Shown: positions 4,074-48,704 of the stretch, piece after piece
Position numbering within the stretch: the first letter of the stretch is position 1
Layout: each line of letters opens with the position of its first letter
From: a virus
Virus record (IMG/VR): IMGVR_UViG_3300022872_000001
Span: 1 to 64,000 of that record
Reading direction: 5' to 3' (one strand)
Length of the DNA: 64,000 nt
Program-made: the position numbers and the translations under genes
Notes under the pieces: model-generated
Databases searched by the model: none
Told to the model about the DNA's origin: nothing
What the model saw: only the letters and a program-made list of their open reading frames with translations

Positions 4074-4430
4074 TTAGGGTAAGCGAATAACCTTCAATGA
4101 ATCTTCCGCGTAGCCACCGTCTGACATTCCCGACAGACACGCTTTATTCCAGCTAGTAAGAGGACCACCCATATCTATCGTCTGTTCCCAGTACTGGAAG
4201 ACTGACAAGGGTTTAAAGCTTAGCGTGTATAATGGCGTCCCGTCGCAATCCCGACCATGGCGTACAACTAGGAGACGCAAGCCATTCAGCTCATTGCTTT
4301 TCCCGTCTTCTGGCTCCAGACCAACAACTTCAACGAGAGCACCAAGAGGAATATTGTGTTTCATCTCTCCGTTCTTTTGACGCCACGACTTTCCTGGAAT
4401 GTCAGAGGGCGTGTCGCATACGTTTATCAT
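4074..4430 (-). CDS. conserved phage hypothetical protein
   Basis: HNIPLGALVEV...RDCDGTPLY pattern, recalled from phage hypothetical proteins. Confidence 0.65.
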   Translation of the reverse strand: MINVCDTPSDIPGKSWRQKNGEMKHNIPLGALVEVVGLEPEDGKSNELNGLRLLVVRHGRDCDGTPLYTLSFKPLSVFQYWEQTIDMGGPLTSWNKACLSGMSDGGYAEDSLKVIRLP

Positions 4431-4483
4431 TTCTGTTCCTTAATGGACGGAAAGGGCGCAGCCGAAACTACGCCCGTTTTGGA

Positions 4484-5197
4484 TTAGAATTTCAGATGGT
4501 AGGGTTGCAGGTCAAGATTACCGAAGACAGTATCCTTAAAGCTTTCGGATTTCAGGAACTTGTCTTTCGGTGCATCCGGTTGATCAACCAAAGACTTCAT
4601 GATCATTTTCGGATATTCGCCTTCATAGTAAACCTGAAGTTCGCCTTCACCGCCCTTTGCCTTATGCTTGGCGTTGTGATTGGCGTAGGTAGCTTCCTTG
4701 TCGGAGTCATCTTTGACAAAGCGGGTCATCACGCCGTCGATAACATCCTGCATGTCATCATCGTGCAACACACCGATTGATTCCTGCATAGAGGCTGCGG
4801 TGTTGACGATATCATCCAGATAGAAAGCAATACTTTCAGGAGTAGGGTTATTAGAAAACAACAGCATCAGGTCGGAGAAGCGACGTTCCAGCTTATCCAT
4901 TTCCCGCTCAAAAACAGCCCAGATTTGAGGGGCATTCAGGTGACGAAGTTCCCAACCAGGGATACCTATCATGTGATGACCACCATAGGCAAAGACACAG
5001 ATATCGCAAAGTGCATCGCGCACCTGACTCATGTTTCTTTCTGAATAGGCGGTGTTCAATTCTCCGATTTCATCACCAATGTTCTTGCATTGGTTCTGGA
5101 CGCGTGCAAAATCAGGATTAGTACGCACACCTTCGGCATTGCCAAAAGCCAGGTTCATTGCTGCTACGATTTTAAACGAGTTGTTGGTAGATTGCAT
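4484..5197 (-). CDS. MazG-like/all-alpha NTP pyrophosphohydrolase
   Basis: DEIGEL...VRDALCDICVFAYG matches the ExxE...DxxxD metal-binding pattern. Confidence 0.7.
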   Translation of the reverse strand: MQSTNNSFKIVAAMNLAFGNAEGVRTNPDFARVQNQCKNIGDEIGELNTAYSERNMSQVRDALCDICVFAYGGHHMIGIPGWELRHLNAPQIWAVFEREMDKLERRFSDLMLLFSNNPTPESIAFYLDDIVNTAASMQESIGVLHDDDMQDVIDGVMTRFVKDDSDKEATYANHNAKHKAKGGEGELQVYYEGEYPKMIMKSLVDQPDAPKDKFLKSESFKDTVFGNLDLQPYHLKF

Positions 5198-15506: not shown

Positions 15507-15669
15507 GGGATAGCTTCTTAAATGGTATAGGTAAACTCTTTGACGATCTTTTCTTGATCGTATTGGGACTTGATTCTGACTGCTGTTTTCCTTTCAATGA
15601 TAGGTTACAGAATCATGAGGAACAAACGACGGTAACCGAACACGAGGGACGTGTTCGGTTATCACCACT

Positions 15670-15679
15670 TATTTACTGC
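15670..15679 (-). promoter_or_regulatory. YAGTAAATA motif
   Basis: GCAGTAAATA, followed on the transcript by an 11-bp hairpin (15632-15660). Confidence 0.6.
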
Positions 15680-15686
15680 TAACGCT

Positions 15687-17041: not shown

Positions 17042-17071
17042 GGTATTCTCCTTGAATGCAGAGTAAATAAA

Positions 17072-43213: not shown

Positions 43214-43836
43214 TTATAATCCTTAAGAAGCCTAATTGGTATTTAATCATTCATACTTTATTTACTAGCTAAGGATTTATAGGTACCTAGGATAGCGAAG
43301 GATTTTTGAAGACTTGAGTGCCTGTCTCAATGGTTGGAGTTAGATTCCTTTCCTTCCGACAGACATGGAATCCTAATATGGAATCCTAATATGGAATCCT
43401 AATTCAAATATCAATCCTACTGATTTTATATTTATAAAAGATTGGTTCAGCTCGAAGTGGAACGGAGAGATGTGGATCGTAAAATAGAGAGTGAGCGGAG
43501 CGATACTCTCTTTAGGAAGTTTAGGCAAACAGGCAACCCCAACCTAGGTAGCTGGTCGAGTTTATTTATCCTTAAGGAGTTTGGTTAATCCTAATCCATG
43601 GGATTGGAACCGTACTTAGTTAATACCATCTTCCGCTTCGCTACAGATGGTTAAAAGGACTCCGTCCTACCTAATAATTTTGAAAATCATGATAATTGAA
43701 AAGCTAATAATCCCTTTAAAAACCTAATCAAAACTGCGTTTTTAGGGAAATGTAATACGTCAACGCAGTTATCTATTATATGGACACTTATTACATAAAT
43801 TCATTCAAGTAAATAACGTACATAAATTCGATTTGC
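43214..43836. other. divergent intergenic region, candidate replication origin
   Basis: Strand switch; no ORF; 13-bp direct repeats, several hairpins, AT-rich flanks; adjacent to a helicase-like gene. Confidence 0.55.
43365..43403. repeat. 13-bp direct repeat ATGGAATCCTAAT x3
   Basis: Three perfect head-to-tail copies. Confidence 0.9.
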
Positions 43837-47113: not shown

Positions 47114-47563
47114 ATGACAACAGGAAGCATGCAGGAACTGCCAGAGAATGAGTTGCAGGATTTAGGAACAAACTTAATTGATGCTTTATTAGGCAAAGCA
47201 TCCCGTGAATCTCTTGATGTCATGGCTGAACTTCAGGAATCAATCATAGACGCCATCGATTCCCTTTCTACCTCTCTTGGCATTAGCTATGAAGACTCAG
47301 ATGACGAGGACGACGAAGAAGATGACACGGAAGATGGTGAAGACGGTGCTGGTACGGATATCGATGCTCTTGAAACCGAAGAGGAAGTGGAAGTTACCAC
47401 TACCGAAGATGTCGATCATCTGACAAGTAATCAATTGCGCAAGCTGTCTATTAGCATCGCAAATGAATTATTCGTCCGTGCTTCGCAGGCGGATGCAGAT
47501 GATTGTGATGAAGAGGACGAAACCGAGGATTCGGAAGCTGATGAAGAGGATTCGCATTTCTAA
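47114..47563 (+). CDS. acidic hypothetical protein
   Basis: 149 aa, D/E-rich; TAGTAAATA at 47067-47075. Confidence 0.7.
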   Translation: MTTGSMQELPENELQDLGTNLIDALLGKASRESLDVMAELQESIIDAIDSLSTSLGISYEDSDDEDDEEDDTEDGEDGAGTDIDALETEEEVEVTTTEDVDHLTSNQLRKLSISIANELFVRASQADADDCDEEDETEDSEADEEDSHF

Positions 47564-47579
47564 TTTGTTGCAGTAAATA

Positions 47580-48155
47580 AACAGTGAACAACACGAATGG
47601 AGGATCTTATGTTTTCCGGCATTCGTGCGATGTTGCAAGATTGGTACTACGTAATCTGTAATACAGATTACCAAGTCTTCCTTTATAAGGTTGGGTGTGG
47701 GAACCTAGTTGCTGCAACCTACGGCAGGTCAGCAACATACACTATTAGCCGACGCGCTAGCCACAGATTTTGGTATCTGTAAGGCTAGCGTGATCGTTAT
47801 ATAGAGCAGTACCCACACCGCACATCCTGCGACACGCGCACAGCCACAACTTTACAATTCAAGCATCAAACTAAAAGGCTCGTGCCTATTAGGACGTCCT
47901 AACTCTTACACAGTTATCTTGTTGATCGAAAGCTTCAAGGTTTCTATGTAAGACGGAATGTCCATTTATGCGTAGCGTGAGAGAACGCCGCCGGAAGCAT
48001 AATGCAGACAACTAGTAGTTGATATCGAGCGTAGTTATTTGGGTCGCTCCCGCTACATCCCGGTTTCATCCTATGCGTCGATTCACTGCTTCCGAAGCCG
48101 TTTTTAAATAGATTCAAATGAAGGGCGATTCAGAAATGGGTCGCCCTTTTCCTTT
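47580..48155 (+). ncRNA. candidate large structured non-coding RNA (~550 nt)
   Basis: Follows GCAGTAAATA (47570-47579), ends in a terminator; at least four local stems and two long-range helices; no convincing ORF. Confidence 0.6.
48121..48155 (+). terminator. intrinsic terminator
   Basis: AAGGGCGA/TCGCCCTT stem + TTCCTTTTG. Confidence 0.7.
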
Positions 48156-48221
48156 TGTTCAGTAGTAAATAAAGTGTGCATCATTTAAATCTAAGCTAAC
48201 TAATTCTCGAAAGGTACTATC

Positions 48222-48704
48222 ATGGCAACTAAGAAATCTGCAACTAAGGCTCTATCCGCAACACGCACTACCTACGCTGTTGATCTGAAGAGTAAGAAAA
48301 CAGTACCTGCAAAAACATTCGTCACTGGCCGCCTGGAACAACCGAAGCAAGCCTCCCAAGAACCTTTACCTGAACCAGAAACGGCAGTAGACGCTGGTAC
48401 TTTGCTTGGTACCTATATTCCTCCAGGTGACGGGGACTCGTCTACTGTATCTACCCGTTCGGTAATTCTCTCCCGCATTTGCGGCATGGAACAGACGATT
48501 TTACACAATCGTGGGTTACTCGGTGACCTTATCGCTACCCTCAGTCCTATTCTGGGGGAAGACGCCGTGGTACCTCCTGCGCCTACTTCATGCTTTGAGG
48601 CAAATGTTCACTCTCATCTGCGTCTTCGTATTGAGAATATCATCGATACTCTGGAAGATCAAACACGCGTTATTGTTTCCCTAATTACGGCTGTGGAGTT
48701 GTAA
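48222..48704 (+). CDS. hypothetical protein
   Basis: 160 aa; TAGTAAATA at 48163-48171; C-terminal helices resemble 48972-49265. Confidence 0.65.
   Translation: MATKKSATKALSATRTTYAVDLKSKKTVPAKTFVTGRLEQPKQASQEPLPEPETAVDAGTLLGTYIPPGDGDSSTVSTRSVILSRICGMEQTILHNRGLLGDLIATLSPILGEDAVVPPAPTSCFEANVHSHLRLRIENIIDTLEDQTRVIVSLITAVEL

Follow-up and report, generated by a model that had tools for sequence, protein, structure and literature searches.

A transcription unit bounded by a promoter motif and an intrinsic terminator, and dominated by an exceptionally stable predicted fold, occupied positions 47570-48158 of the window, that is, of the whole 64,000-nt stretch analyzed, which forms the start of a 192,170-bp IMG/VR viral record with an estimated completeness of ~82%. 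Our preferred reading, held with somewhat less than even confidence, is that the unit is a translationally gated, structure-dominated and highly stable mRNA for a small ORF, followed by a structured tail of 340 nt. It would form an insulated cassette in the early region of an RSL1-like jumbo phage, with RNA made from the promoter at 47570-47581 as well as by read-through from upstream early promoters, and ending at 48120-48158. This RNA would serve as the messenger for a 57-residue orphan protein, with the Shine-Dalgarno (SD) sequence and start codon shut by a hairpin of -15 kcal/mol, the rest of the ORF placed almost wholly inside a 211-nt three-way-junction domain, and ~340 nt more of folded untranslated RNA lying downstream. 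The fold may hold translation off, or very low, until it is opened by processing, a helicase or a protein, and it probably also makes the RNA long-lived. The original prediction had described the same region as a large structured non-coding RNA, possibly of a new class. The observation behind that description is real and statistically strong. Its interpretation as a new class of non-coding RNA is possible, though not the one best supported; the unit is a lone representative of something already known, be it a phage mRNA gated by structure or a phage RNA of large size.

The nearest cultured relatives of this phage by DNA polymerase were the Burkholderia phages BCSR5, BcepSaruman and BcepSauron, Ralstonia phage phiRSL1, and Achromobacter phage Motura. 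Since polymerase identity to all of them was only ~50% at the amino acid level, the phage is a deep-branching RSL1-like jumbo phage. The unit was located in the first rightward transcription block of the genome, where a divergent gap (43214-43836) is followed by a gene for a 722-aa protein, four small orphan genes, the unit itself, three orphan genes, and then the genes for a Dda-like helicase and a family-A DNA polymerase, 1.1 kb downstream of the unit. The stretch from the 722-aa protein to the helicase was full of lineage-specific orphan genes, and its content was entirely different in the closest related records. The GC content of the unit (45-50%) was above the genome mean of 43.6%, and no paralogue or repeat of the unit was found elsewhere in the genome. 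The second half of the protein encoded directly upstream (149 aa, 47114-47563, + strand) was extremely acidic, rich in Asp and Glu, and contained short direct repeats; the protein had no family match and could be an early protein of the DNA-mimic or anti-restriction type.

We found that the GCAGTAAATA motif, proposed earlier as the promoter of the unit, was indeed present and belonged to a genome-wide, promoter-like family with a consensus of approximately GCAGTAAATAA and an extended form, GCAGTAAATAA-n-G-n-GTG. Seven copies of YAGTAAATAAA were present in the window versus 0.16 expected. The core AGTAAATA was present in 43 copies in the genome, its strand tracking gene direction; within the window, copies were on the - strand left of 43.3 kb (with one exception, at 17062) and on the + strand right of 43.8 kb. 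An SD, a start codon and an ORF followed the motif at 18-50 nt in 21 copies, with a median distance of 31 nt, and the spacing in the unit fell close to this median. In phiRSL1, BcepSauron and the related record L008, the same motif was likewise placed between a terminator and a ribosome-binding site, and the order of terminator, promoter, ribosome-binding site and small gene recurred in the latter two. The motif was often located directly 3' of a terminator hairpin, forming a 'stem-loop + promoter' cassette. Over-represented, co-oriented with genes, set at a fixed distance from the ribosome-binding site and common to related phages, the motif is probably an active promoter of RSL1-like phages, and transcription of the unit would start near 47584-47587.

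The hairpin-U terminator named in the original prediction also proved real, with a 13-bp stem (48120-48149) followed by a T-run, and was the only strong + strand terminator within 44-64 kb. No terminator was found between the upstream promoters (43808, 45997, and 47068) and 48120, so transcripts from these promoters should run through the unit and stop at 48120. The unit had been described as independently expressed; its bounding by a promoter motif and a terminator stood, but its own promoter would not be the sole source of transcript, given the read-through from upstream. An antiterminator based on the 8-nt repeat 48040-47/48137-44 was considered and dropped, as 8-nt repeats were at chance level here.

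Table 1. Features and folded segments of the unit and its surroundings. Positions are those of the window; MFE, minimum free energy; P, pair or helix probability.
Feature	Position	Strand	Details
Putative phage promoter motif, consensus GCAGTAAATAAA	47570-47581	+	Member of the motif family; position-weight rank 9/43
AGTAAATA sites in window, examples	12406, 22884, 43266	-	
AGTAAATA sites in window, examples	43808, 45997, 47068, 48164, 51003, 61167	+	
Start-region hairpin	47592-47627	+	Arms 47592-99/47620-27; dG -15.0 kcal/mol, z -3.3
Orphan ORF P0001, 57 codons	47609-47782	+	GGAGG SD 5 nt upstream of ATG; ATG 29 nt after promoter motif
Compact multi-branched 211-nt domain	47627-47837	+	Helix probabilities 0.9-1.0
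211-nt domain, closing helix	47627-41/47824-37	+	
211-nt domain, hairpin	47651-71	+	
211-nt domain, three-way core P1	47694-701/47812-19	+	
211-nt domain, hairpin A	47708-36	+	
211-nt domain, long hairpin B	47742-47804	+	ORF stop codon in its bulge
8-bp helix with ~31-nt C/A-rich loop	47838-47885	+	47846-47871 predicted unpaired
Long imperfect hairpin	47892-47963	+	G-U pairs, possible GAAA loop; helix probabilities 0.92-1.0
3' domain	47981-48105	+	Closed by 47981-87/48099-105 and 47992-99/48087-94
Intrinsic terminator	48120-48158	+	13-bp stem 48120-48149, 6 G-C pairs, GAAA loop, T-run tail TCCTTTTGTT; P 0.97
Next promoter motif GTAGTAAATAAA	48162-48173	+	Position-weight rank 3/43; serves downstream gene at 48222; marks end of unit
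Folded segment, terminator excluded	47585-48119		MFE -178.7 kcal/mol vs shuffles -139.4 +/- 6.4; z -6.1 (+), -5.4 (reverse)
Folded segment, core (136 nt)	47690-47825		MFE -61.0 kcal/mol; z -7.1 (+), -5.9 (reverse)
Folded segment, 211-nt domain	47627-47837		MFE -86.7 kcal/mol, z -7.4 (+); reverse-strand MFE -86.8
Folded segment, 3' third	47783-48119		MFE -94.1 kcal/mol; z -2.75 (+), -0.85 (reverse)

The original prediction had proposed a comparison of folding energy with dinucleotide-shuffled controls, and the fold was far beyond chance, with z -6.1 over 535 nt (Table 1). The MFE of the 211-nt domain was below that of all 2,560 genome windows of 211 nt on both strands, in which the minimum was -76.1 kcal/mol. 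In a genome scan by 150-nt windows, the unit region ranked second of 3,841, after a bidirectional terminator at 114.25 kb (genome 114255-114300, beyond the window). This terminator, a perfect hairpin of 17 bp with A- and T-runs on its sides, lies between convergent genes and is the most stable local structure of the genome. The other long gaps of the genome gave z values from +1.4 to -5.6, and one of the two most negative (15507-15686) contained a terminator-type hairpin. The 3' third of the unit was by itself only moderately structured, and was the sole strand-asymmetric part. Because most helices were pure Watson-Crick, the reverse strand folded nearly as well (z -5.4), and the fold alone is therefore no proof of function at the RNA level. 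Two further regions outside the window were noted. The segment at genome 99640-99860, with -86.6 kcal/mol over 221 nt, was top-ranked in both genome scans and partly overlapped a 205-nt ORF-free gap (99713-99917), and a 423-nt gap at 130210-130632, with no ORF of at least 30 codons on either strand, was mildly structured (z -1.6 / -2.2).

Every stem listed in the original prediction was recovered at its position, and the half-site ACAGAT/ATCTGT occurred four times, as two inverted pairs. In the start-region hairpin, the SD GGAGGA (47599-47604) was mostly paired and the AUG (47609) was in the loop; in the ensemble computed for the full length, pairing probability exceeded 0.95 for SD bases 47599 and 47602-04. 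Downstream of the 211-nt domain, the segment 47838-47965 gave z -3.8, and the C/A-rich loop within it (47846-47871) was the longest predicted single-stranded stretch of the unit; this open loop may, in the modeled fold, serve as an interaction site. The interior of the 3' domain was poorly determined, with pair probabilities of ~0.5, and the segment 47964-48110 alone gave z -1.6, below significance. A long-range helix between 47609-20 and 47990-48000 had also been proposed, but this pairing turned out to be a minor conformer, making up ~10% of the ensemble and lying 4.4 kcal/mol above the MFE. The alternative pairing as computed joined 47614-20 with 47990-96, and the preferred partner of 47992-99 was 48087-94 (P 0.92).

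The claim that the region held no convincing protein gene was too strong, since the ORF at 47609-47782 had a GGAGG SD and was present in public gene calls, in which exactly this 57-aa product appeared on 7 contigs. The GGAGG sequence fitted the AAGGAG-type ribosome-binding sites usual in this genome. The chance of such a frame was estimated on 132 kb of the antisense strand of confident genes, where a strong SD with an ATG and an ORF of at least 50 codons occurred 4 times, that is, 3e-5 per nt, or ~0.001 expected per 33-nt post-promoter window. A coincidence of about 1 in 1,000 is a strong argument for the frame being, or having been, a translation unit. The codon usage of the ORF was non-coding-like, with a log-odds score of -0.04 versus -0.07 +/- 0.11 for non-coding control ORFs and 0.19 +/- 0.10 for 57-codon pieces of real genes, placing it at the 1.8th percentile of real coding chunks. 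Neighboring small orphan genes also scored low (0.04 and 0.07), and the relative synonymous codon usage of the ORF, 1.02, equalled the lowest value among 46 small genes. The peptide was aromatic and basic, with no Glu and one Lys only, and its 57-aa translation had no stretch long enough to span a membrane. AlphaFold2 gave no confident fold (pLDDT 47), which is weak evidence against the ORF as the run was made on a single sequence. Recoding by frameshift or read-through at the stop codon in hairpin B was considered and dropped, there being no slippery site and no extended frame.

The start of this ORF was more occluded than that of any other gene in the genome, the hairpin energy of -15.0 kcal/mol comparing with -3.3 +/- 2.7 kcal/mol, and a minimum of -13.9 kcal/mol, for 192 predicted gene starts. 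By established rules for start sites, a hairpin of -15 kcal/mol would all but abolish translation. The stop codon of the upstream gene lay 46 nt before the ATG, probably too far for terminating ribosomes to open the start hairpin. The weight of structure in the coding part was then measured by keeping the peptide, redrawing or permuting its synonymous codons, and calculating the energy of 47585-47837. The native sequence gave -99.4 kcal/mol versus -66 +/- 4-5 kcal/mol for the recoded sequences, with z -6.8 and -8.5. Judged by these modeled energies, the nucleotide sequence is chosen for pairing and not for codon preference, whatever the role of the ORF. A locked start, non-coding-like codons, and a structure-dominated sequence together point to the RNA fold as what selection acts on. 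If the RNA is made and folded as predicted, it would be the most strongly selected RNA structure in this 192-kb phage genome, and would offer either a clean single-locus case of the gating of a small early protein by an RNA fold, or a new large phage RNA. As the phage is uncultured and the element without relatives, its practical weight is limited and no generalization can be made yet.

Two known systems resemble the gated messenger that we favor. Members of the hok/sok family are type I toxin mRNAs locked by fold-back of the transcript. Like them, the unit would give a compact transcript of a few hundred nt with a peptide of ~50 residues and a sequestered SD, and it sets long-range against local pairing, its start region pairing with 47990-96 in ~10% of the ensemble. 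Unlike them, it encodes a peptide that lacks both hydrophobic character and a membrane helix, and the unit has neither an overlapping 'mok'-like frame nor homology to the family. Consensus scans, which could miss one, found no - strand phage motif or good sigma-70-like promoter within 47570-48160. In phage T4, 'PeSL' cassettes consist of a stem-loop and promoter flanking small orphan genes, and the ribosome-binding sites of e, soc, and I-TevI are locked by hairpins in read-through early transcripts. The unit shares with these cassettes the order of strong stem-loop terminator, promoter, and small gene, and with e, soc, and I-TevI a ribosome-binding site locked by a hairpin that is present in read-through transcripts. 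Its GTAAATA motif also resembles the T4 late promoter TATAAATA. However, transcription from the T4 late promoter begins within the hairpin, which leaves the ribosome-binding site free, whereas the likely start of the unit (~47585) lies 7 nt before the hairpin, so that its own transcript would be locked too. Nor do the T4 cassettes have a structured ORF body of 211 nt or a tail of 340 nt.

The alternative that survives best is a large structured RNA that is non-coding, or dual-function, with a length of ~570 nt or a core of ~210 nt plus accessory domains. The ORF and its SD would then be accidental or vestigial or, in the dual-function variant, the RNA would work as RNA and the locked 57-codon ORF would be a second output. 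We regard the two variants jointly as possible but doubtful. Such an RNA could act as a decoy, scaffold or sponge, and would be an orphan of the size of GOLLD or ROOL. The extreme fold (z -6.1 and -7.4, with the lowest MFE of all 2,560 windows), the non-coding-like codon usage of the ORF and its lack of homologues, and the occluded start are what this reading would have in its favor, and the unit is also the largest stretch without an ORF of at least 70 codons in the 192-kb genome. The G-U pairs and strand asymmetry of its 3' third (z -2.75 versus -0.85) favor a + strand RNA, and the corresponding region of BcepSauron, upstream of the Dda-like helicase, carries stable-RNA genes in the form of seven tRNAs, together with the by-eye tRNA-like stretch described below. 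Against it stand the ~1-in-1,000 coincidence of an SD, an ATG, and 57 open codons at the canonical distance from a promoter, the absence of a matching Rfam family, and the negative outcome of the homologue searches given below. With GOLLD and ROOL the unit shares a phage-borne location, a length in the range of 500-800 nt, a multi-domain and strongly folded form, and a region that carries tRNA genes in sister phages. In contrast to the unit, which has an SD-led ORF inside it and matches neither of their covariance models even at E <= 10, those families are defined by covariation across many genomes.

The BcepSauron region in question (NC_049851.1, 116601-123000) holds its seven tRNA genes between small genes, and the feature table shown lists CDS only. 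At positions 647-877 of this piece there was an apparent tRNA 3' fragment and a perfect hairpin of ~40 bp. At positions 4428-4502 a stretch looked tRNA-like by eye, although neither ARAGORN nor Rfam called it; downstream of it came ~170 nt of structured sequence, a terminator and a promoter. The structured gaps of BcepSauron were considered as analogues of the unit and dropped, since tRNA genes that the feature table omits account for them.

The searches for known families bore out the earlier statement that the unit has no hallmarks of tmRNA, RNase P or introns. Rfam 15 at gathering thresholds returned only two tRNAs (29.8-30.0 kb) for the whole window, and at E <= 10 only chance snoRNA and ctRNA matches, far below threshold, for 47400-48300, with no GOLLD or ROOL; ARAGORN found no tRNA or tmRNA in the unit. 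Outside the window, a group I intron matched RF00028 at genome 158717-159030 (- strand; 74 bits, E 1e-16), and this family and the two tRNAs were the only Rfam families in the genome. Searches for relatives of the unit were likewise negative. No relative was found by blastn in distant mode against 50,697 phage records. Following the Dda-like helicase through IMG/VR and metagenomes gave a best identity of 49% at the amino acid level with a different upstream gene content, and blastn and nhmmer across 22 IMG/VR helicase loci showed no DNA similarity to the unit; relatives sought through the downstream 160-aa protein gave none carrying it. The 57-aa peptide, used as query in word-indexed and in exhaustive HMMER searches of protein sets of 5.8e9 entries and of 1.84e9 cluster representatives, retrieved only itself, and the ESM Atlas gave no usable match. 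Three sub-threshold HMMER matches were rejected as spurious, being near-identical tandem-repeat proteins in which weak per-repeat scores add up. A covariance model built on 47685-47830 had no match in the whole records of phiRSL1, BcepSauron, and two related uncultured phages, and none among 66 related loci and 7 pattern matches, the latter being chance. GTDB genomes and IMG/VR were also scanned with exact and structured patterns and gave no homologue. Two other public assemblies were 100% identical over 3.6 and 6.2 kb, and the protein clusters of neighboring genes held no variants. With no homologue in any collection searched and the compared public copies identical, there is no covariation support for the fold, and as to the label of a new class, a class of one is no class.

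The unit is unlikely to be a commonplace cassette with an orphan gene, or 'moron', of a rapidly changing region, with a 340-nt tail that is a decaying remnant of lost genes and inverted repeats that are functionless by-products of recombination or template switching. Such an origin would suit the lineage-specific orphan genes around it, which are entirely different in the closest relatives, the mostly perfect Watson-Crick helices that fold equally on both strands, and the non-significant 3' domain (47964-48110, z -1.6). However, nested helices with z -7 and a recoding z of -8.5 would not readily arise in the absence of selection, the genome holds no paralogous copy, and a six-frame read-through against Pfam and PHROGs detected no remnant of a gene or protein.

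A DNA-level or replication-linked element, with palindromes acting as protein-binding sites or extruded hairpins, or with the transcript acting as an R-loop primer, is very improbable: strand-symmetric perfect palindromes, the ACAGAT/ATCTGT half-sites in two inverted pairs, the position 1.1 kb upstream of the Dda-like helicase and family-A polymerase, and a size near that of RNA II speak for it, but the transcript stops at a strong terminator, beyond which lies a new promoter, the cumulative GC-skew minimum is not at the unit but at ~40.4 kb, near where the strands switch (43.2-43.8 kb), there are no iterons and no AT-rich unwinding stretch (GC 45-50% versus 43.6% for the genome), and a better origin candidate exists in the divergent gap 43214-43836. 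Like ColE1 RNA II and the T4 oriF/oriG primer transcripts, the unit would give a structured transcript of ~550 nt adjoining replication genes; unlike these, it ends at an intrinsic terminator, and no origin signature or equivalent of the antisense RNA I was found. The divergent gap 43214-43836 was itself not unusually structured (z -0.5). It is syntenic with a 536-nt divergent gap of phiRSL1 (NC_010811.2, 204434-204969) that has the DEAD-like helicase ORF295 on one side and the recombination endonuclease ORF296 on the other, was very strongly structured (z -6.5 / -4.3) and carried the same promoter motif at its flanks.
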